Below are positions 2,767 through 62,995 of a stretch of DNA of 64,000 bases, piece after piece (the first letter of the stretch is position 1; every line of letters starts with the position of its first letter). Under the pieces are notes generated by a model that had not been told where the DNA came from, made no database searches, and saw nothing but the letters and a program-made list of their open reading frames with translations. The stretch is from an uncultured Candidatus Saccharibacteria bacterium (lineage in GTDB: Bacteria; Patescibacteriota; Saccharimonadia; Saccharimonadales; JAGQNJ01). The DNA is taken from assembly GCA_964577565.1 (NCBI GenBank), contig CAZNZL010000001.1, forward strand, positions 334,566 to 398,565, read 5' to 3'. Position numbers and translations under genes: made by a program.

Positions 2767-3144
2767 TTAGCCTTCAACTGCTACTTCAAAGCCGCCGTAG
2801 GCCATCTTTTTCATATCGTTTGGCATTTCAAAATCAGCTGGGTCGCCCATTGCCCCCATTTCAGCCATGACTTTTTTGTTTACTTCATCGCGGTGTTTTT
2901 TAGATTTAAAGACAATAAACGAAAACCACACATTATCATCAGCTGTTGCATTAGCCATTTCTTTAAAATCCCTTGATTTTTGGTCACCCATTTCGTTCTG
3001 TTTAAGATCATCACCCCTGCATTCAAAGTATTGAAGCGCACCATGCTTCATCCATGAATCACGTCCCATTTCTGCCATTTTTTGATATTCAGCTTCTTTG
3101 CCCTTCGGCACCACTAATACAAATCCATCAACATATTTACCCAT
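2767..3144 (-). CDS. DUF1428 family protein
   Basis: MGKYVDGFVLVVPKGKEAEYQKMAE...YGGFEV matches my memory of the DUF1428 family. Size is 125 aa. Confidence 0.65.
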   Translation of the reverse strand: MGKYVDGFVLVVPKGKEAEYQKMAEMGRDSWMKHGALQYFECRGDDLKQNEMGDQKSRDFKEMANATADDNVWFSFIVFKSKKHRDEVNKKVMAEMGAMGDPADFEMPNDMKKMAYGGFEVAVEG

Positions 3145-3193
3145 TTTTTACTCTCCTCCATTAAATTGCTCCGTACTTATTTTAGCACCCGGT

Positions 3194-3220
3194 AAAAATA
3201 AAAAGGACGCCGAAGCGTCC
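3194..3220 (-). terminator. rho-independent terminator candidate
   Basis: Hairpin ggacgc-cgaa-gcgtcc (3205-3220) is followed on the minus strand by a T-run (A-run 3194-3204 on plus). It lies downstream of the hydrolase gene. Confidence 0.55.
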
Positions 3221-3386
3221 ATTAATATCTATTTGGTGCCGCCTGTCTGGCATATTTCTAACCGCTACACCTGAGAATGTTGATTTATATAAGCTAAGGG
3301 AGCTTGTGAATCTGTTTAATTTATCTAGTCAGTTAATAGATTAAAGGAGAGGCCCTGTGACCTCTCCCTGCAAAAATTATTAGCTT

Positions 3387-4169
3387 TTAAGCGTCATTGT
3401 TAATCTCCTTCATATCTTTAGCATATTTAGCTTTAATCCATAGTGATGTCATTTCATAGAGGTTGTCCATGGCACCTTCTTCCGTAAACGGATGAGATAC
3501 ACCTGGAATAACCACATGCTTTGTGGCTGCTTTAATATTTTCGGCGTAGTATTTGCCGTATGTCGACATAGCCTTACCACTATCGGCGGCATTAACTACT
3601 AGCGTATCAACAAAAAAAGCATTAGCCATTGTCGTACTGCCCGGTGCGTAATCATTGAAAACTTTACCTGATAATACATATCCAGGTCCCTTTGCAGATA
3701 CATATGAATCAAGCTCATCAATGTACAGGAAGTCTTGTTCAAGACTCTCCTTAGCTTGCCGCTCATCATAGCCATCTGTATGACTGGCGTCCCATAAAAC
3801 AGCTGCATTAAAAGCTTGTTTTTGTGAGTAAACTATCGCCATGCCACTATAGCTATGGCCAATTACGCAAATCCAATCGGCACCACGCTCACGGACATAA
3901 TCAACAATAGTGTCAATATCTTTGGCACAGGTTTTCACGCCGAACTCTCCAATATCTCTCTGCTTTTTGCTATCTCCGTAAAAACTGACCCGCAATGTTG
4001 ATATGCCCTGCTGCTCAAAGTAGCGTGAAGCGTTGAACAACAGCAAGTCGTGTTGCCAACCACCTAATCCTGGTGCAAGCACAACTAACGGCGATATATA
4101 TTTGCCCCTTAATGTTCCCTCAATTTCTATATGACTATCAGGAATAGGGATACTAACGCTCTTTTCCAT
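3387..4169 (-). CDS. alpha/beta hydrolase
   Basis: GHSYSGM nucleophile elbow (GxSxG). GGAG lies 6 nt before the ATG at 4169 (MEKSVSIPIP...). Confidence 0.7.
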   Translation of the reverse strand: MEKSVSIPIPDSHIEIEGTLRGKYISPLVVLAPGLGGWQHDLLLFNASRYFEQQGISTLRVSFYGDSKKQRDIGEFGVKTCAKDIDTIVDYVRERGADWICVIGHSYSGMAIVYSQKQAFNAAVLWDASHTDGYDERQAKESLEQDFLYIDELDSYVSAKGPGYVLSGKVFNDYAPGSTTMANAFFVDTLVVNAADSGKAMSTYGKYYAENIKAATKHVVIPGVSHPFTEEGAMDNLYEMTSLWIKAKYAKDMKEINNDA

Positions 4170-4536
4170 AGTAAACTCCAATTTAAAACCGAGCGTATGT
4201 TTTAGTTGTCATACATTGCTCGGTTTCTTGAAAGATTATTAGTTACAAAAACACTAAATAGTCGCGGAGGATGTATGACTGTTCAGTGGTTTTCGTAGAC
4301 TAACATATTAAATATATCGTAACATTAAGTACTGTTTGTGTCAATTCAGTTAGAGTCCTGTTTGTATGAAGGTCAAAAACAAGCAAAAAACGCCGATTTA
4401 CTCGACGTTTTCTAGGGGTCATTTTCTAAAATATGTTTGGTGCAAGATAGTTGACGCATTTCAAACATCGGCAATTGAGCGTGCAAATGATACGAAACTT
4501 CAACACTTAGTTAAAATCTTTGGTTTGTCGAGTGAC

Positions 4537-5181
4537 CTAATCTAGTTTTTTACGCAATTGTTCTAGTAAATAGCTATGAAATTCTGTCATAAAGTTATTC
4601 CACAGCATATACGGTCGTTTATGTTCAACTATCAAATCAATAATCTTATCTGACTCACTTATGCCAGTGTAGTGTTTATACCTCCAAATTGTAATTTCTT
4701 TTGGTGTTAGGTAGTCCATTATGTCAGGTGTTATTTTATCAATTGCTTTAGCAAACTTTGCGGACTTACTTTTCTTCTTCTCGGCATCGTCATAAATATC
4801 GTGATAAATAGGATTTAGTAATTTTAGTGCGGCATTGTATTCAGCTTTGGCTCCATCCTTATTCTTAGTAAATGTCATCTCATCGCCTGTAATCAACTCG
4901 CCTATATCGTGTATCGCTAGCATAGTTAGTGCATCTCCAAGGTTAACCTCATCGTCACTTATATGTGGGAAAAACGCAGTCGCCATCACAGGAAGTGAAC
5001 CAACGTGTTCCATAAGTGTTTCACGAACTAAATTGTCGTCAGGATGATATTTAAAATTCGGAAAATGTTTGTGTGCAGTCTGCCAAAGATACGGCTGAGT
5101 TGTTGCTCTTAGTGTTTTAGAATATCTTTCAAATAAATACTCTAGTTCGTCTAAAAACTTATGCATATCTTTTTTCGACAT
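4537..5181 (-). CDS. HD-domain phosphohydrolase (YfbR-like 5'-nucleotidase family)
   Basis: LMEHVGSLPV...LAIHDIGELITGD gives the H..HD..D metal-binding pattern. ATG at 5181 (MSKKDMHKF) is preceded by GAGAG. Confidence 0.7.
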   Translation of the reverse strand: MSKKDMHKFLDELEYLFERYSKTLRATTQPYLWQTAHKHFPNFKYHPDDNLVRETLMEHVGSLPVMATAFFPHISDDEVNLGDALTMLAIHDIGELITGDEMTFTKNKDGAKAEYNAALKLLNPIYHDIYDDAEKKKSKSAKFAKAIDKITPDIMDYLTPKEITIWRYKHYTGISESDKIIDLIVEHKRPYMLWNNFMTEFHSYLLEQLRKKLD

Positions 5182-5318
5182 ATTACTCTCAGAATAACAA
5201 AAAATGAGCCAAAAGTGGCTCAAATGTTTGAAAGTATACTGTTTGAAAAACGTTTGGGTTGTATTGGTGCACCTGACCGCGCAGCTCTTGAACTCGGTAC
5301 CTCAGGTGGATCGAGTGT

Positions 5319-5987
5319 TTACAGCTCTGGCCCGGCCGGTCCCGAAGCGTGGTCGGAGGCCGTCGGAGTTCCTCTACCGGTTGGATCCGTAGCGAGCCCG
5401 ACGTGCCAGCGGCCGTCTTCGTCCTGTGATACGTCCAGTTCAGAGAGATCGAGACCACCATCTAGAAGACCCCGGAGCATCTCTCGACCGAGTCCGCGTT
5501 CTGCGGCCGACATGCCTATGTCGTGGGTATAGGACGCCTCGAAGCTGAGTACATCGCTCTGGTGTTGGGCTGGACGCGGTGCTGGTGTCCGACGCGCAGC
5601 GTGGCGCCTGCGAAGTGCTGCCGCTTGTGCTCGGTCGAAAGATTGCTGCCATTCGTCTGCGAACTGACGTACTTCATCACCGTCAAGCATGTCCACGAGA
5701 CGTTGGCCATGTCTCCAGTCGGGTGGTTCCTGTTCTGCCCGACGCTGAGCGCGAGCAGCCTGTCGTTCAGCAGCTACCTCGGCGACGTGTTCTGCGCCCA
5801 GAACCTGATCGACTCGTTTGCCAACAGGAACGATCGCCTGCTCCGCTTGGAGCGCAACTTCTCGTTCTCGCCTTCGTCGTAGGACCCGTTCAGGTTCATA
5901 GGAAGGACCCACACTCGGCAGATCTGACGAAGGTGCTCCCGGTTCACGTTCTCCTGTCATGGGCCACATTATGAGACTCGTTCTCAA
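5319..5987 (-). CDS. hypothetical protein (Arg/Ala/Glu-rich), third gene of the island operon
   Basis: 222-aa ORF co-directional with the two upstream genes, with a 26-nt gap. No motif recognised. The start is uncertain (MTGEREP is an alternative). Confidence 0.45.
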   Translation of the reverse strand: MRTSLIMWPMTGEREPGAPSSDLPSVGPSYEPERVLRRRREREVALQAEQAIVPVGKRVDQVLGAEHVAEVAAERQAARAQRRAEQEPPDWRHGQRLVDMLDGDEVRQFADEWQQSFDRAQAAALRRRHAARRTPAPRPAQHQSDVLSFEASYTHDIGMSAAERGLGREMLRGLLDGGLDLSELDVSQDEDGRWHVGLATDPTGRGTPTASDHASGPAGPEL

Positions 5988-6013
5988 TTCCCTCTAGTGT
6001 GGAATCGACAACG

Positions 6014-6376
6014 TCAGGCAGCTCGTTCGTCCCTGAGCTGCTCTCTGGCGAGGTCGACGAGGGCTCGAGCCAGAGTGGTGAGATCGGGTTCGTCGCGCTG
6101 GTAGGCGGTGACCTTGATGGTGGTCAGCTTCTTGGGGGAGCGAGAGTCTGGGATGGTCATCCGAACCCGGCTGCCACGAGCAACCCGTGGAGGATCTGCT
6201 CCGGGTGGTGGGCTTGGGTTGGTCAGCTCTTCGATGACCGTGAAGCGAAAGCTGGAGGGATCGACAGGGACGTAGGTTAGCTCTGCCGAGACGACAGTTG
6301 CTTCCTCAGTCCCGCGATCTTGCGGGGGGGGGGCGAGGTCATCGCCTGGGTTGGCGAAGAGGGAGAGCTGGGTCAC
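6014..6376 (-). CDS. hypothetical protein, second gene of the island operon; contains a C10 tract
   Basis: GTG start lies 15 nt after the stop of the 911-aa gene (MTQLSLFANPGDDLAPPPQ...). Third-position G/C bias supports the minus strand over the antisense ORF 5999..6280. Confidence 0.5.
   Translation of the reverse strand: MTQLSLFANPGDDLAPPPQDRGTEEATVVSAELTYVPVDPSSFRFTVIEELTNPSPPPGADPPRVARGSRVRMTIPDSRSPKKLTTIKVTAYQRDEPDLTTLARALVDLAREQLRDERAA
6324..6333 (-). repeat. homopolymer G10 (C10 in the coding sense)
   Basis: Counted directly as tgc+ggggggg+ggg. It encodes APPPQ inside CDS 6014..6376. Confidence 0.95.
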
Positions 6377-6391
6377 GGGAGCACCATGCGC

Positions 6392-9127
6392 CTACTTCTT
6401 GAACGAGGACTTAAGCTTCATAGTCCTTCGACTGAATGGAATCGGCCCACCTTCTAGGTGGTCGAGGGCCAACCGGTTGAGCTCGTGGCGTTCGAGCGAA
6501 CCTGATGCCTCGACCTCTCCATGACCAGCAGTCGCTTTCATTGTGACGATCTGCTCGGCATCTCCACTCACCACAATCCCAGGGCTTCGTGTTGCGAACA
6601 GATATTGCCGACTTCCCCGGAGGTCACGCAGACGGTCAACGAGGTACTCCTCAATCCAAGGGGCATGCAAGGCGTCTTCGGGTTGGTCGACTAGTACAGG
6701 CGTGTCCCCGTCAGCGAGCAGGATTACCAGGATGGCTGTGCAGCGTTGGCCATGAGCCAGCTCCTCTATCGCCGTGTACTGGTGATCGTCGGGCTTCTTG
6801 AACTTTATGGTGAGTACATCGGGGCGTTCGATAGTCTGCATCTCCAGGAGCTGCTCCCACATGTTCCGGTCGTCAATGTTGGCGAGAAGCTTCGCGACGC
6901 TGGTTGAGTCGATGCCGTGGGCTGTGTTAACGACTTCGTTGGGCGTCCCGAGCCAGAGGCTGCGTGAGAACTTGAGCGGACTAGTACGCAGCGCAAGTTG
7001 GTGAAGGAAGTCGTCCTTAACGCGTGATCCGACCTTGATCTCATCGAGTGCGTCACGGAAAGCCTTCGCGTCACCCTCATTGGGCACGTCCAGTTTGACA
7101 AACCCCGCAGCCTTTTCATTCAGCTGAAGCACGCGAGCCCGCCTCAGCTCCCGGCGCTCCTTGCGCGCTTCGTGGAGCACATCAATCATCTGTTCGCGTT
7201 GCTGTTCGAGTGTAGCTAGCGCAGGCTTAGCTTGCTCATCCAGCTCTTCCTTTGCGGCTTCGGCGTGGGTCAACTTCCCCTGGAGCTGTTCCAAACTGGC
7301 GCGTAAGGCGGTAAGCGAGGTTCCGTCGGGATCGACCTTCTCTAGCTCTTCGTCGAGCTTCGCCTTGAACTCAATGAACTTGGTAGACCATTGCTTCTCA
7401 ACCAGGCCGAGCTCGTCTGCCGCCTCGGTTAGACCCTTCTCGATAATCTCTAAGCCTTTGGCAACTTGCTCATCGAGCTTCGCAATGGCCTTGGAGGTTT
7501 GCCCAAACAGCTCCTTGTTCGACTCAACCTTGTGAGCGATCTCCGCGTTGGGCACCGCTAGCGTCGGAACTTCAAGTTGTTCGACACGTACTTTGACCTG
7601 CTGCAACGCCGTCTTCTCAGCTGCCCAGCTCGCCTGCTCTTTCACCGCGTCGGTCTTGAACACGTCACTAAGCTTCCGAACCTGCTCCTTAAGATCTGTC
7701 ACCCGTCCAGCATCGTCGGTCAGGCGAGAAACCCGATTACGAGCCGCAATCAACTTGGTGGCATTGGTTCGGAGCCCAGTTGTCGCTGCTGCGATTCGCT
7801 CGTTGATCTCGTCCAAGTCGAGCGCAGAATCGACCAGAGTCATACGGCCGACTGGCTCCCGCGAGTACTCGAGGATCTCGCCTTGCGAGAACGCTGCTAG
7901 AGGACACAGCACTGCCGGATCTACGTCTACGTCAGCCCAGTCTCCACTGGTCTGTTGAGAGACCTGTGCATTTGGGGATCCCGTGGGATCGAAAGTGCGC
8001 TCGATCTTGTAACGCTTGCCTTCGGCAACCAGAACAAGGCGAACAACACTCCCATTCATCAGTGCCTTTTCCATTCGCGAGTCAATCTCGTCACGTATGG
8101 CTGGGAATGAGTCGTGATCTACTTGCTGCTCAAGAGCGAACCGCACTGCCTCAAGGATCAACGACTTTCCCGTACCCGTGCCACCGAGAAGGCAGTTCAG
8201 GTCCGGCGAAAGGTCGATCTTTCCCCCGCCAAGGAACCCACCGATCAGCTCGACAGATTCGATCCGCGCATATGGCGGTGACAATGCTGGTTCTTCTAGA
8301 GTGATTCGCAAGGGAGGATCAGCCAGCGCATGGCGAACGCCTATCAGATCCGGCCGACTGGCCTTGATCCATGTCCGCCTCGCGCCGATGCCGGCAAGCG
8401 AGTGACAGCTGAGCGTTTCGTCCCATGTGTCGGATCCGCGCACGAAAGCCATCGTTCGCTCGTCAGCAATCTTGTTGTTGACATTGTCGATGGTGTCCAT
8501 GTGGACGACCTCGACCGCCGAAATCTGATCGCAAAGCAGAATCTTCTTTTGATGCGCCTTCACGCCAAGCTTTAAGAGACCCTTGGGCTTCTCGATATGG
8601 GCAGCAATAGCGATCCCACCTGCCTTGTCAACTTCAACGGCGGCTTGGGTGAACCCAACATCAGCCGCGATATCGAGCTTGCCTCGGTCCGCTTGTCCGA
8701 TGCCAAGGCGCACAAGCAACTCCTGGATCACCACTGGATCGACACCCTCTTCCCATATGGCGAGGAGGTGTCCTTCCGTAGTGCTGATCTCCACGCCTGG
8801 TAGGACAACTAGCGGACTTTCGGCAGCCGCATCGGCAATCCGCTTGCACCACGTTGCGGTGTTGTGGTCGGTGATCGCGATTGCATCTAGACCAGCGTCG
8901 ATCGCCGCCTGGACGATCTCCGCAGGAGTGCCATAGTGCTCCGGCTTGGCATCTTGCGATCCTGGGGTGTGCACATGGAAATCGACGGCCCAAAACCTTG
9001 CCCAGTCAGCTTTCACGATGCGCACCTTACATACTTCATCACACCCAATTATCACACTCTGCAGGCCCTCAGTCCGTTGCAGAATTCGCAACGCCGTCCG
9101 TCCGCAGCCACTTAGGCCAGCAGGCAA
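6392..9127 (-). CDS. PHP phosphoesterase domain fused to an SMC/Rad50/RecN-like coiled-coil ATPase (Ppl-like architecture)
   Basis: PHP motifs are WAVDFHVHTPGS, AIAITDHNT, GVEISTTEGH and AAHIEKP. Walker A LLGGTGTGKS lies at nt 8162-8185, followed by a long coiled-coil of about 270 aa. The C-terminus carries signature-like HGQR plus Walker B/D-loop VLVDQPEDALH. An alternative GTG start lies at 9025. Confidence 0.8.
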   Translation of the reverse strand: MPAGLSGCGRTALRILQRTEGLQSVIIGCDEVCKVRIVKADWARFWAVDFHVHTPGSQDAKPEHYGTPAEIVQAAIDAGLDAIAITDHNTATWCKRIADAAAESPLVVLPGVEISTTEGHLLAIWEEGVDPVVIQELLVRLGIGQADRGKLDIAADVGFTQAAVEVDKAGGIAIAAHIEKPKGLLKLGVKAHQKKILLCDQISAVEVVHMDTIDNVNNKIADERTMAFVRGSDTWDETLSCHSLAGIGARRTWIKASRPDLIGVRHALADPPLRITLEEPALSPPYARIESVELIGGFLGGGKIDLSPDLNCLLGGTGTGKSLILEAVRFALEQQVDHDSFPAIRDEIDSRMEKALMNGSVVRLVLVAEGKRYKIERTFDPTGSPNAQVSQQTSGDWADVDVDPAVLCPLAAFSQGEILEYSREPVGRMTLVDSALDLDEINERIAAATTGLRTNATKLIAARNRVSRLTDDAGRVTDLKEQVRKLSDVFKTDAVKEQASWAAEKTALQQVKVRVEQLEVPTLAVPNAEIAHKVESNKELFGQTSKAIAKLDEQVAKGLEIIEKGLTEAADELGLVEKQWSTKFIEFKAKLDEELEKVDPDGTSLTALRASLEQLQGKLTHAEAAKEELDEQAKPALATLEQQREQMIDVLHEARKERRELRRARVLQLNEKAAGFVKLDVPNEGDAKAFRDALDEIKVGSRVKDDFLHQLALRTSPLKFSRSLWLGTPNEVVNTAHGIDSTSVAKLLANIDDRNMWEQLLEMQTIERPDVLTIKFKKPDDHQYTAIEELAHGQRCTAILVILLADGDTPVLVDQPEDALHAPWIEEYLVDRLRDLRGSRQYLFATRSPGIVVSGDAEQIVTMKATAGHGEVEASGSLERHELNRLALDHLEGGPIPFSRRTMKLKSSFKK

Positions 9128-9200
9128 AGGGGACTTGAACTCAAACGACCCCTGTAATCAGGGGCCGCAGAGTTCTAGTAATAAGAGTCATTCTCGAAGT

Positions 9201-9276
9201 TGGTGCGGGTGACGAGACTCAAACTCGTGGCCTCTTCCTTGGCAAGGAAGCGCTCTATCAACTGAGCTACACCCGC
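9201..9276 (-). tRNA. tRNA-Gly (GCC)
   Basis: RC is gcgggtgtagctcagttgatagagcgcttccttGCCaaggaagaggccacgagtttgagtctcgtcacccgcacca. The cloverleaf folds by hand and CCA is encoded. Confidence 0.95.
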
Positions 9277-9460: not shown

Positions 9461-9751
9461 TTACAAGTCTTCAGATCCTTGAGGGGCATCATCCGACCTC
9501 TCTTTAATCCATTCTTGAAATTCTTTATCTGACATTTCCAGGGTGCGTAAAATGGTCTCTATCATCTCTGGCGCACCCTCAAACGTAACGGGGCTATCAC
9601 CTAAAGGTTCGAAGACGCTTGAAGGAATATAACCTTGACACCCAATTTGAACAGCCAGTCCTTCTCCACGCTCGAATCTATCGCTACACATCACGTTTAT
9701 CTTACCACAAATGAATTGGCTGATCAGGCCTCCCAGGGCTTCCTTCGGCAC
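9461..9751 (-). CDS. hypothetical protein
   Basis: 96-aa ORF between two tRNA genes. No motif recognised. Confidence 0.4.
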   Translation of the reverse strand: MPKEALGGLISQFICGKINVMCSDRFERGEGLAVQIGCQGYIPSSVFEPLGDSPVTFEGAPEMIETILRTLEMSDKEFQEWIKERSDDAPQGSEDL

Positions 9752-9819
9752 ATTTCAAAACTTTCTCGAAGCAAGCTGCTGCGCGTGCTCATCATGAACG
9801 AACTGCCCACTTCGTGGCA

Positions 9820-9832
9820 CCCAGTTCGAGTC
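9820..9832 (+). repeat. inverted 13-nt copy of the tRNA-Phe T-arm
   Basis: cccagttcgagtc on the plus strand equals the sense T-stem/loop of the minus-strand tRNA-Phe (complement at 9907-9919). Confidence 0.85.
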
Positions 9833-9860
9833 GTTAAGCAAAGACTAAACCCTAAGTAAA

Positions 9861-9890
9861 AGCCCCATCCATTAGGATGAGACTTTTACT
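9861..9890 (-). terminator. hairpin plus T-run after tRNA-Phe
   Basis: Minus sense reads aaaagtctcatcctaatggatggggcttttac, with stem catcc/ggatg followed by TTTT. Confidence 0.55.
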
Positions 9891-9891
9891 T

Positions 9892-9967
9892 TGGTGGCTC
9901 CTCCCAGACTCGAACTGGGGACACAAGGCTCTTCAGGCCTCTGCTCTACCAACTGAGCTAAAGAGCC
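9892..9967 (-). tRNA. tRNA-Phe (GAA)
   Basis: RC is ggctctttagctcagttggtagagcagaggcctGAAgagccttgtgtccccagttcgagtctgggaggagccacca, 76 nt. Confidence 0.95.
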
Positions 9968-10141
9968 ACGTCACTGCGTAAATGTTTATTGCCACAGCTT
10001 TTTGAAAGCAAAGCTATCAAAAAGCTATTTGCAACAAACAAAGTCAGTTCCTCTTCCCCAACTTGAATCCCCTCAAGTTGGGGACCCCTAAGTATCGGAA
10101 TTAGGCATACATATAATAGCGGATCAGGGGTGAATTTTCAA

Positions 10142-10501
10142 TTATAGATTAGTGAGCTCGCTGATTTTGTCTTGCCAGTCACGAGCTTGATCTTCAAGCT
10201 CACGTAGTTTTTGCTCAAGTTGCGAACGACGCCTGGCAATGTCATTCTCAAAATTTGAACGGTCACTTTCAAGCTTAATGTTATTACGTGCCGCTAGTGC
10301 ACGCTGGGCATCGTCCGCATTAGGATTGCCCGCCACAATATTGTTGCGGTTTACCTCAGATTCAATCTCCTGTATTCTTCTGTGGCGTTCTTCTTCAAGA
10401 CGACCAATTTGCACCCGAATTTCGTTAGCCTCATTTTGCTTCGCAACTTGAGCACGTTGTAAATTGCTCGCTGCAACTTGTATGTATTCCTCGCCTGCCA
10501 T
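10142..10501 (-). CDS. coiled-coil protein, unknown function
   Basis: 119 aa, heptad-rich (RLEEERHRRIQEIESE...). It lies downstream of the SPFH gene. Confidence 0.6.
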   Translation of the reverse strand: MAGEEYIQVAASNLQRAQVAKQNEANEIRVQIGRLEEERHRRIQEIESEVNRNNIVAGNPNADDAQRALAARNNIKLESDRSNFENDIARRRSQLEQKLRELEDQARDWQDKISELTNL

Positions 10502-10552
10502 GACAAAATTATATGCCTAAGCCTGGCGAATGCTTGTAATTTTTTTAACAGA

Positions 10553-11287
10553 TTACTTTGTGAGTTTTTGTAGGTTCTCAAGCAATTCCACCGGCAACAC
10601 AAATACGCTTTTTTGTGATGGCTCTACCGAGATTTTTTCTAATGTTTGCAGAGTTCTAATTGAAACTCCGCCTTTTACTTTGCTCAGCATCTGAGCGGCT
10701 TCAGCCACTTGTTGAGCTGCCGCTTTTTCGCCCTCCGCCGTAATGATGACAGCTCGTCGCTCACGCTCTGCTTCGGCTTGCTTGGCCATGGCGCGCTTCA
10801 TATCTTGTGGTAATTCAATGTTTTGAATTTTAACGTTTTCTACATCGATACCCCATTTGTCGGTTTCGCTGTCTACTACTTTTTTGATTTGCTGGCTAAT
10901 TTCATCGCGCTTACTCAATAACTCATCAAGTTCGTCGTTACCTACTACATCACGGAGGGCCGCTTGCGCAAACTGGGCAGTCGCATACGTGTAATTGGTT
11001 GTTTCGAGCACTGCTTTCTCGGCTGAAATAACCCGAAAATAAACCACCGCATCGACGCCGATGGTTACGTTATCTTTAGTAATTACCTCTTGCTTTGGAA
11101 CATCAACTGGTGTAGATCGTACATCGACCTTCTTCATGACTTGGATAATAGGAATAATAATATTAAGACCTGGGCTTCTAGTACCCGTGTACTTACCGAG
11201 CGTTAAAATAACGCCACGTTCATACTGGTTAATAATTCGTATACCCGTAATTATCACAAAAGCGATGATAATAACTAAAACCCACAT
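10553..11287 (-). CDS. SPFH/band-7 (stomatin-like, slipin) membrane protein
   Basis: N-terminal TM followed by IINQYERGVILTLGKYTG...VDVRSTPVDVPKQEVITKDNV...ELPQDMKRAMAKQAEAERERRA. Confidence 0.85.
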   Translation of the reverse strand: MWVLVIIIAFVIITGIRIINQYERGVILTLGKYTGTRSPGLNIIIPIIQVMKKVDVRSTPVDVPKQEVITKDNVTIGVDAVVYFRVISAEKAVLETTNYTYATAQFAQAALRDVVGNDELDELLSKRDEISQQIKKVVDSETDKWGIDVENVKIQNIELPQDMKRAMAKQAEAERERRAVIITAEGEKAAAQQVAEAAQMLSKVKGGVSIRTLQTLEKISVEPSQKSVFVLPVELLENLQKLTK

Positions 11288-62590: not shown

Positions 62591-62995
62591 GGGGCTGACT
62601 TTAAGCTCGACGTAGGACTTTATCGGTTAGATCAGCAGGTCGCGTACTAAGCGTTATATGGTAAAACTTTTTAACTGCAACAGTTAAAGAACGCGTAGCA
62701 AACGCACTGAACAGCCTTGCGGCTGCTTTTCGTGCGCCAGCTATCGCAACAGCTGTAGCTTAATTTGCTTCAGCCGTACCTAGTGTGACGCCAGATAGCT
62801 CTAGCGTGCGCCATATTTTCTGGATGCGTACTGCTTACTATCCATAGGCAGTATTAAGCCTTTAGGATTGCGAAGTTTGGTTATTTTGTCTGTTTTTCAG
62901 GCCAAGCTTCAAAGATAGCAAAAACAGACTAAACCTGTAGACGACTAACCAAGATAAACTTGCGGACGCGGGGGCAGTACCCGCCAGCTCCACCA
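62591..62995 (+). ncRNA. ssrA: tmRNA (SsrA)
   Basis: 5' GGGGCTGAC..CTCGACG and 3' GGACGCGGGGGCAGTACCCGCCAGCTCCACCA form a 7-bp acceptor stem with G3:U70. The internal tag frame is GCA AAC GCA CTG ... GCT GTA GCT TAA (ANALNSLAAAFRAPAIATAVA). Confidence 0.85.

Follow-up and report, generated by a model that had tools for sequence, protein, structure and literature searches.

Ppl, a protein that combines a PHP domain with an ATPase, was reportedly recognised as a single-gene anti-phage system in work by Gao et al. from 2020. Integrative elements and satellites at tRNA genes also have hotspots with defence genes as cargo, and elements that lack an integrase and are mobilised in cis (cis-mobilisable elements, CIMEs) are known as well. 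Here we analysed a 64,000-nt stretch of DNA, hereafter the window, from an uncultured Candidatus Saccharibacteria bacterium (contig CAZNZL010000001.1), in which a 3.9-kb GC-rich insert behind a tRNA-Gly gene encodes a large PHP-ATPase protein followed by two small open reading frames (ORFs), ORF120 and ORF222. We consider it rather likely that this insert is a mosaic tRNA-Gly islet, in which a TrlF-family defence gene is the variable cargo of a conserved backbone, and in which ORF120 and ORF222 are not subunits specific to the nuclease.

Escherichia coli Ppl is a single-stranded DNA 3'-5' exonuclease that is inhibited by nucleoside triphosphates (NTPs) bound to both of its domains and activated by NTP depletion together with free 3'-OH ends (2026 review, PMC12904381). 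It was still uncharacterised in 2024, with a phenotype and a phage counter-gene described (PMC11482910). The large protein of the window shares with Ppl the PHP-ATPase logic, the single-gene relatives and sequence similarity over the PHP domain, the Walker A lobe and the helical insert, and a Ppl-type NTP-gated 3'-5' exonuclease would by analogy be its most likely working model. The TrlF family is named for trlF of the temperature-restriction locus trlR-trlF-trlG (TRL) of Photorhabdus laumondii (PMC7554251). With this family the large protein has in common the PHP domain, the split ABC ATPase, a length of about 873 aa and the habit of residing on plasmids, prophages and islands. It differs from enterobacterial TrlF in being only about 25% identical to it and in an arginine at the H-loop, and from the Photorhabdus TRL operon in that the window holds neither a TrlG (AlbA_2/HATPase_c_4) nor a TrlR partner, the upstream neighbour being a tRNA; a small helix-turn-helix (HTH) gene precedes a TrlF homologue only in L002, one of the loci compared below. 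As in tRNA hotspots and CIMEs, conserved flanks enclose a fixed slot whose defence gene varies, a tRNA 3' end is adjacent and the composition is foreign; one copy of the islet also has an excisionase-type HTH_17 gene. Unlike those elements, the islet is no larger than 2-4 kb, genes for an integrase, a relaxase or replication were found in none of the copies, and its backbone genes are without known family.

The three ORFs of the insert are co-directional on the minus strand and separated by 15 and 26 nt, as the initial annotation had described (Table 1). They occupy a segment at about 5300-9150 with a GC content of 0.56-0.62, compared with 0.36-0.47 on either side; it is the sole strongly GC-rich segment in the 64-kb window (about 57-64% against 36-43%), and its right edge, at about 5265, is sharp. 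The GC content at third codon positions (GC3) is 0.64 for the large ORF, 0.69 for ORF120 and 0.50 for ORF222, against 0.32-0.41 in host and neighbouring genes. The foreign composition beside tRNA-Gly that had been proposed was thus borne out by GC, GC3 and ARAGORN. Scans with Pfam, PADLOC and NCBIfam revealed no integrase or site-specific recombinase in the islet, again in line with the earlier reading, and the only Rfam match in the island was the tRNA.

Table 1. Positions of the islet features in the window.
Feature	Position	Strand	Remarks
tRNA-Gly(GCC)	9201..9276	-	ARAGORN; Rfam tRNA 71 bits; islet starts straight after its 3' CCA
Conserved post-tRNA segment	9114..9200	-	77-90% identical to L009 and L021
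Extended -10-like box TGTGATAAT	9048..9056	-	32 nt upstream of the large-gene GTG; consensus resemblance only
TrlF-family (Ppl-like) protein, 874 aa, PHP exonuclease-type domain and ABC/SMC-like ATPase	6392..9016	-	start most likely at GTG 9016; longest ORF to 9127 (6392..9127, 911 aa)
PHP motifs of the large gene	8957-8992 (DxHxH), 8858-8884 (DHN), 8768-8797 (E, H)	-	
Remaining PHP motifs	8585-8605 (H), 8396-8443 (D, H)	-	
ATPase motifs of the large gene	Walker A 8162-8191, Q-loop 7871-7897, helical insert about 7030-7840	-	
ATPase motifs, C-terminal lobe	signature-like GQ 6734-6760, Walker B/D-loop 6665-6697	-	
H-loop position of the large gene	6578-6601	-	reads ATRS (LFATRSPG)
ORF120, 120 aa	6014..6376	-	real small gene, very rare family
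ORF222, 222 aa	5319..5987	-	real gene; start probably 5969 or 5960
Candidate 41-codon ORF VHLTAQLLNSVPQVDRVFTALARPVPKRGRRPSEFLYRLDP (VHLTAQLLNS...FLYRLDP*)	5267..5392	+	antisense to 3' end of ORF222
29-nt end motif GAGTTCAAGAGCTGCGCGGTCAGGTGCAC	5267..5295	-	at most two mismatches in each of L008, L009/L010, L013, L014 (two copies) and L021
Terminator-like hairpin with T-run	5205..5222	-	between islet end and host HD_3 gene; pattern scan only

The large protein contains the Pfam domains PHP, AAA_23 and AAA_21 together with every peptide motif quoted in the initial annotation (WAVDFHVHTPGS, AIAITDHNT, GVEISTTEGH, AAHIEKP, LLGGTGTGKS, HGQR and VLVDQPEDALH), which confirms its description as a fusion between a PHP phosphoesterase and an ATPase of the SMC/ABC type that contains a long helical insert (about 270 residues between the two ATPase lobes). 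The 911-aa product proposed earlier corresponds to an existing ORF, but the gene most likely starts at the GTG codon and encodes 874 aa, since homologues are 871-880 aa long and open with M..DWARFW. The NCBIfam model NF045780 ('TrlF family AAA-like ATPase') was aligned over the full length of the protein in one stretch (residues 6-868 to model positions 3-943 of 944), with scores of 344.1 bits (874-aa form) and 343.8 bits (911-aa form); the curated cut-offs are 350 bits for NF045780 and 1000 bits for the Ppl model NF042955. Because other members of the same clade score 341.8, 342.8 and 356.5 bits, the clade, at 342-357 bits, straddles the TrlF cut-off. A TrlF protein encoded on an E. coli IncF plasmid reaches 541 bits, and a clade member from Rhodococcus is named TrlF family in UniRef. 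The Ppl model gave 245 bits over model positions 3-631 of 882, and Ppl (PDLC02208) was also the best PADLOC match (E = 8.4e-51, model positions 5-642 of 894). Matches to the Ppl models span the PHP domain, the Walker A lobe and the helical insert and leave the C-terminal ATPase lobe outside. The Spaf_1101 family of NCBIfam was aligned as well, more weakly than TrlF. The likeness to Ppl noted earlier thus holds as relatedness but not as membership, the score lying below the Ppl cut-off. Judged by these models, the large protein is related to the anti-phage protein Ppl as part of a sister family, not as a Ppl member or orthologue, and belongs to the curated and widely annotated TrlF family; the novelty that had been claimed for the PHP-ATPase fusion is therefore not upheld.

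Catalytic columns were compared in an alignment of 11 sequences, which included TrlF of E. coli and Bacillus cereus. D25, H27, H29, H64, E89, H96, H153, K297, Q391, G769, Q770 and D790-D794 were invariant in all 11. They include the PHP ligands (DxHxH, DHN, E, H, H), the lysine of Walker A, the Q-loop, the GQ of the signature and the DQPED of the Walker B/D-loop. At the H-loop, all actinobacterial-type clade members examined carry arginine in place of histidine (ATRS), compared with ATHN in E. coli and B. cereus TrlF. The 874-aa ORF is free of lesions, and the ratio of non-synonymous to synonymous divergence (omega) of the large gene was at most 0.10 relative to five homologues, with synonymous sites saturated. 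Similarities to structures in the PDB were limited to AriA (C-terminal lobe; 8v46, 8ux9) and small PHP hydrolases. Models of PARIS AriA, Septu PtuA and Lamassu LmuB likewise match the C-terminal ATPase lobe (signature, Walker B, D-loop); these matches are local (70-90 residues), and the effectors of PARIS, Gabija (GajA), Septu and Lamassu are separate or of the TOPRIM type.

A search for homologues of the large protein returned 509 sequences, the closest being 65-80% identical. Named organisms among these closest homologues all belong to Actinomycetota (Nocardioides, Mycobacteroides abscessus, a Rhodococcus opacus plasmid, Mycolicibacterium, Ornithinimicrobium, Blastococcus and a Gordonia plasmid). 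The closest known relative is the TrlF-like gene of locus L019 (80% amino acid identity). The wider family matches 871 plasmid records, 632 of them conjugative, as well as 6 phage records and 27 viral contigs. Relatives of the clade stand alone in L002-L007, L015 and L020, while a small gene follows in the window and in L019. In L002 the solitary gene lies in a region resembling an integrative and conjugative element, with type IV secretion genes and the small HTH gene upstream; in L004 it is divergent from an 832-aa gene; in L006 it is found directly behind a type III restriction-modification (R-M) system; in L020 it overlaps the end of a type I hsdR gene; and in L015 it is flanked on both sides by insertion sequences on a Gordonia plasmid. 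The downstream gene is convergent or unrelated in all five. Similarly, E. coli TrlF is encoded alone on the IncF plasmid, next to vapB, and the B. cereus plasmid copy is alone near genes for AimR, a phage antirepressor and an HTH regulator. No match to ORF120 or ORF222 was obtained by tblastn against the loci of clade members or by a motif scan of the 27 viral TrlF-family loci, and both are absent beside TrlF-family genes in about 20 other contexts, where the gene is solitary and frequently has R-M genes as neighbours.

Next we compared the loci in which ORF120-type genes occur. The cargo gene is co-directional with the following ORF120-type gene in all of them. In the window, the tRNA-Gly gene and the post-tRNA segment are followed by the TrlF-like gene, ORF120, ORF222 and a terminal segment. 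L009/L010 is a syntenic relative of the window organism (housekeeping genes 64-71% identical at the nucleotide level; tRNA order Leu-Val-Phe-Gly common to the window and L009). There, tRNA-Gly is followed by a gene of host GC content for a 172-aa protein of unknown type, then by a frameshifted ORF120 homologue, an ORF222 homologue, the HTH_17 gene and the terminal segment; no TrlF gene is present at this tRNA-Gly site, and the GC-rich part of L009 is limited to 9500-10993. In L021 the post-tRNA segment precedes a PDC-S19/DUF3644 gene (E = 2e-89), an ORF120 homologue, a gene for 78 aa and the terminal segment. L008 (64% GC) opens at the contig start with the C-terminal 478 aa of PDC-S06 (E = 1e-92), which overlaps an ORF120 homologue by 4 nt, followed by the terminal segment. 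L018 opens at the contig start with the C-terminus of HerA, followed by an ORF120 homologue and a DUF6414 gene, and L019 comprises the 3' half of a tRNA-Gly gene, the TrlF-like gene and a gene for 135 aa. The slot directly 5' of the ORF120-type gene thus holds five different genes, four of which are known or candidate defence genes, and ORF120 is present without ORF222 in L008, L018 and L021. Relatives of ORF120 have diverged at a proportion of synonymous differences (pS) of 0.25, compared with a saturated 0.74 for the nearest TrlF relative, so cargo and backbone differ in their histories. Within the extent of their contigs, L009, L021, L008 and L019 showed no recombinase gene.

Both small ORFs are real genes under purifying selection. 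Homology of ORF120 opens at the start codon and closes at the stop codon, with nucleotide identities of 87% in L008, 86% in L018, 74% in L021 and 68% in L009. Its conserved core comprises residues 28-120 and ends in the motif PKKL.TI.VTAY.RD.PDL..LARA[LI]V. Omega was 0.29 relative to L008, the lowest of the six frames, and 0.33-0.35 relative to L018 and L021. One gene caller had chosen a 93-aa ORF on the opposite strand over ORF120; the omega of 0.91 in that frame speaks for ORF120 instead. The L009 copy is frameshifted at its C-terminus, and the N-terminal 15-30 residues are missing from the copies in L018 and L021. The 135-aa protein of L019 has only a 26-residue C-terminal motif in common with ORF120, R.EPD[LV]..LARAL (pairwise E = 4e-4). 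In ORF222, the conserved core covers residues of about 94-200 (YTHDIGMSA.ERGLG.EMLRGLL.GGLDL...QDE.G.W), and the last 22 codons, which are absent from the homologues, extend into the terminal segment. Its homologues P0125 (L011) and P0126 (L009/L010) gave an omega of 0.10-0.16. L011 carries the ORF222 homologue without ORF120, and the HTH_17 gene that follows ORF222 in L009 is missing in the window.

Both families are very rare. Among 5.8 billion proteins each had 2 homologues, none beside a TrlF gene, and an exhaustive HMMER search with ORF120 yielded 5 clusters among 1.84 billion representatives. No match to either was found in viral contigs, plasmids or phages. In the GTDB representative genomes ORF120 had no match, and for ORF222 the only one was a 62-residue motif in a prophage protein of Alsobacter. 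The initial annotation had recognised no domain in either protein, and indeed neither has a Pfam, NCBIfam or PADLOC match, even at E = 1. AlphaFold2 models from 3-sequence alignments were unreliable (mean predicted local distance difference test scores of 47.7 for ORF120 and 51.3 for ORF222). The Alsobacter protein, of 285 aa, is encoded in a metagenome-assembled genome (prophage locus L012, 7809-8666), between the small terminase and a ParB-methyltransferase gene, and bears the C-terminal motif of ORF222 (G.DL...D..QDE.G.WH) at its N-terminus. A phage or mobile-element origin of ORF222 would fit this recurrence in a prophage protein next to a small terminase. A weak lead for ORF120 is that its residues 1-7 (6356-6376) read MTQLSLF, similar to the pentapeptide that binds the beta sliding clamp, QL[SD]LF or QLxLF. 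The MTQLSLF motif is kept in L008 and L009 (as QLPLF), is out of frame in L018 and is missing in L021.

We further examined the distal end of the islet, where a 130-nt terminal segment closes each islet locus with visible sequence. Homology among the window, L008, L009 and L021 ends exactly past the 29-nt motif, as does the GC-rich composition, and the flanks beyond it are unrelated. The motif was located at 2148-2176 in L008, 10962-10990 in L009, 890-918 in L013, 1243-1271 and 2205-2233 in L014, and 1973-2001 in L021. L013 and L014 are high-GC metagenome contigs, again with unrelated flanks. In L013 the single copy adjoins a probable vapBC-type pair, and in L014 two direct copies bracket a two-gene cassette with an AbiEii-like nucleotidyltransferase. 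A perfect or near-perfect palindrome lies behind the motif in L013 and behind the first copy in L014. The copies differ at three of the 29 positions, and since at least one of these changes is non-synonymous, the motif appears to be conserved at the level of nucleotide sequence. As to function, the motif could serve as a site of recombination or regulation, or be the start of a gene. Its reading as an integron attC-like site was rejected, as a conserved inverted partner is lacking, and an RNA-structure reading of the terminal segment was dropped after RNAalifold gave no covariation support (term +0.25). The terminal segment is filled by the candidate 41-codon ORF, whose first 29 nt are the motif. 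In the window and in L008, L009 and L021, although the nucleotide sequences diverge by 15-27%, this ORF is open and does not differ in start, stop or length; at an omega of 0.20-0.65 its coding status is that of a candidate.

At the proximal end, the post-tRNA segment contains a terminator-like hairpin, CCCCTGATTACAGGGG followed by TCGTTT (9164-9143), and a T-loop-like 9-mer, GAGTTCAAG (9142-9134). In L021 a segment homologous to window positions 9207-9114 is found behind a tRNA-Leu-like 3' end. The post-tRNA segment may therefore belong to the islet rather than to the host, because it is a tRNA-Leu-like end and not tRNA-Gly that precedes it there. The 9-mer was considered as a left att core; this was not established, the homology to L021 running beyond it to 9114. 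A box, TGNGATAAT, lies 30-50 nt 5' of each cargo gene and also of the actinobacterial TrlF-like gene in L002 (window 9048-9056; L019 265-273; L021 about 150-160; L009 about 9025-9035). It is followed by a ..TCATGA-like sequence, and the homology between L019 and L002 begins exactly at the box. The promoter scan gave no score to the box in the window.

Only two repeats are shared by both ends of the islet. One is GCACCA(A), in the regions 9114-9206 and 5262-5271; in three low-GC loci the 29-nt motif forms GCACCA with the next two bases, CA, and the tRNA 3' end closes with the same hexamer. The other is GAGTTCAAG, present in the post-tRNA segment and in the 29-nt motif. Islets lie behind tRNA-Gly in three loci and behind a tRNA-Leu-like end in one. 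The shared end sequences may be footprints of an integration directed to tRNA ends. The ends of the 3.3-kb L021 contig (1-29 and 3320-3347) overlap within a tRNA-Leu(gag)-like sequence, which implies that the unit is either flanked by two tRNA-Leu copies or was assembled as a circle. The unit itself comprises PDC-S19, the ORF120 homologue, the 78-aa gene, the terminal segment and a 358-aa gene.

Together, these data favour the mosaic islet. The backbone, composed of ORF120, ORF222, the antisense 41-codon ORF and the 29-nt end motif, would occupy tRNA 3' ends in a low-GC lineage, and the cargo, a TrlF-family protein with an N-terminal PHP metal-dependent phosphoesterase and an ABC/SMC-type ATPase in one chain, would have been acquired from a high-GC donor. 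By homology, the TrlF-like protein would act alone, presumably as an ATP-bridged dimer, and from its relationship to Ppl we infer a nucleotide-gated 3'-5' exonuclease directed against DNA ends of invading phage or plasmid DNA. ORF120 and ORF222 would not be specific subunits of this nuclease, because the backbone elsewhere carries PDC-S19, PDC-S06, HerA, a gene of unknown type or another TrlF-like gene.

Several observations weigh against this interpretation. The backbone model is built on seven loci, six of them independent, and these are mostly short, possibly misassembled metagenomic contigs; among the loci examined, no integrase, empty site, circular junction or excised form was seen. In both low-GC loci with a TrlF-like gene, the window and L019, the next gene, 15-37 nt on and in the same direction, is of the ORF120 type, and the two genes may be functionally linked there. 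The large protein falls 6 bits short of the NF045780 cut-off and far short of that for Ppl. Members of the actinobacterial clade, this protein included, are known from sequence alone, and the arginine found at the H-loop throughout the clade means that the ATPase cycle may differ. In Photorhabdus, the temperature-restriction phenotype was mapped to trlG and none to trlF (PMC7554251).

The possible link between TrlF-like and ORF120-type genes underlies the alternative that survives best, though we judge it unlikely: the ORF120 family would be a portable accessory, such as a regulator, an antitoxin-like brake or an adaptor, co-transcribed with an upstream defence gene, the unit being the TrlF-like gene plus ORF120, with ORF222 optional. 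Such a role is in keeping with the purifying selection on ORF120, with its co-directional position -4 to +72 nt behind the upstream gene in six of six loci and with the known or candidate defence function of that gene in five of the six (TrlF-like twice, PDC-S19, PDC-S06, HerA). It would also explain why the L019 protein retains just the C-terminal helix motif, as expected if the helix is the functional part. However, the upstream partners are structurally unrelated, so that a specific protein-protein role is hard to picture, and ORF120 is 85-87% identical at the nucleotide level where the upstream genes share nothing, which is the pattern of a flanking anchor and not of co-evolution. The about 20 TrlF-family loci without ORF120, the C-terminal frameshift in L009 and the truncated N-termini in L018 and L021 likewise argue against it.

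Far less probable is that the three genes make up a single, novel defence system of three components, with ORF120 and ORF222 as sensor or regulatory subunits dedicated to the PHP-ATPase nuclease, as the initial annotation had suggested. Tight spacing, a single strand and a common foreign composition would fit such an operon, as would the one promoter-like site upstream and the one terminator-like site downstream. Yet the trio was found nowhere else: representative genomes of GTDB, plasmids, phages and viral contigs gave no match, and none of the few homologues of the small genes in the 5.8 billion proteins lies beside a TrlF gene. L009 has ORF120 and ORF222 without TrlF, and each small gene also occurs without the other (ORF120 in L008, L018 and L021, the ORF222 homologue in L011). 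The small ORFs are indeed conserved, as their purifying selection attests, but the trio does not co-occur in other genomes, and synteny largely refutes the three-component reading. We give equally little credence to the idea that the insert is a passively acquired high-GC fragment, functionless in its present host and kept only through recent arrival. Its composition has not been ameliorated, mobility genes are lacking, the HTH_17 gene of L009 is deleted in the window with ORF222 fused to the terminal segment, and the ORF120 copy of L009 is decaying; on the other hand, all three ORFs are intact, the 874-aa ORF is without lesions and keeps every catalytic residue, and a cargo gene is kept in the same slot in four related low-GC loci.

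The large protein resembles SbcCD, Mre11-Rad50 and RecN in an ABC head split by a long helical insert and coupled to a metal-dependent nuclease, and differs from SbcCD and Mre11-Rad50 in being a single chain with a PHP domain rather than a calcineurin-fold Mre11/SbcD and in having no zinc hook. That it is a housekeeping DNA-repair enzyme of the SbcCD/RecN type, as weak matches of its Walker A lobe to Rad50, RecN and SMC models and the Gene Ontology term 'double-strand break repair', attached automatically to the Gordonia homologue, might suggest, is refuted by scores (RecN 15.6 bits versus a cut-off of 408; Rad50 24.6 versus at least 700), by the nuclease type, by the absence of cysteine in residues 430-700 of the helical insert and hence of a CxxC zinc hook, and by a patchy occurrence on plasmids and prophages and beside R-M systems, the gene being absent from the syntenic sister genome L009/L010, and is to be regarded as wholly improbable. 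The ordinary RecN/SbcC orthologue against which the earlier proposal had been set is thus not what the gene encodes, its relatives being found in variable, mobile and defence contexts.

Returning to the mosaic islet, a more far-reaching version of it is conceivable, which we put forward only tentatively and hold to be improbable. The 2-4 kb units may represent an undescribed family of integrase-less mini-islets at tRNA 3' ends that carry single defence genes back and forth between high-GC bacteria and a lineage with small, low-GC genomes, with ORF120, the 41-codon ORF and the 29-nt motif as a maintenance or mobility core and a recombinase acting in trans. Such a unit would pair a single defence gene with a gene of the ORF120 family and, optionally, with small genes; its other elements would be the post-tRNA segment, the TGNGATAAT box, the 29-nt motif and the antisense 41-codon ORF. 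The cargo types are TrlF/Ppl-like, PDC-S19, PDC-S06 and HerA-type.

The flanks of the islet consist of ordinary host-composition genes (HD_3, alpha/beta hydrolase, DUF1428, RibD_C, Band_7) and tRNA genes, so the statement that it has no housekeeping neighbours was inaccurate. The interval from tRNA-Gly to DUF1428 differs among relatives (2767-5223 in the window versus 10994-11467 in L009), and from this variation the region downstream of tRNA-Gly appears to be a general hotspot. Two window genes with a GC content like that of the host, at 4537-5181 (HD_3 phosphohydrolase) and 3387-4181 (alpha/beta hydrolase), are missing from L009. A transfer-messenger RNA gene at 62591-62995 on the plus strand of the window (Rfam 80 bits) is unconnected with the islet.

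These results remove a false lead, in that the PHP-SMC fusion is a common, curated single-gene family and not a new three-component system. They add a diverged clade of actinobacterial type that scores between TrlF and Ppl on family models and is now found inside a low-GC genome, which makes it useful for mapping the Ppl/TrlF family or the horizontal transfer of defence genes. While the nuclease-ATPase belongs to an already known family, the recurring backbone with its swappable defence cargo is the part that merits follow-up: at tRNA 3' ends, five different cargo genes are accompanied by a tiny, rare gene set and a 29-nt site, and should the unit prove mobile, defence genes would have in it an unusually minimal vehicle.

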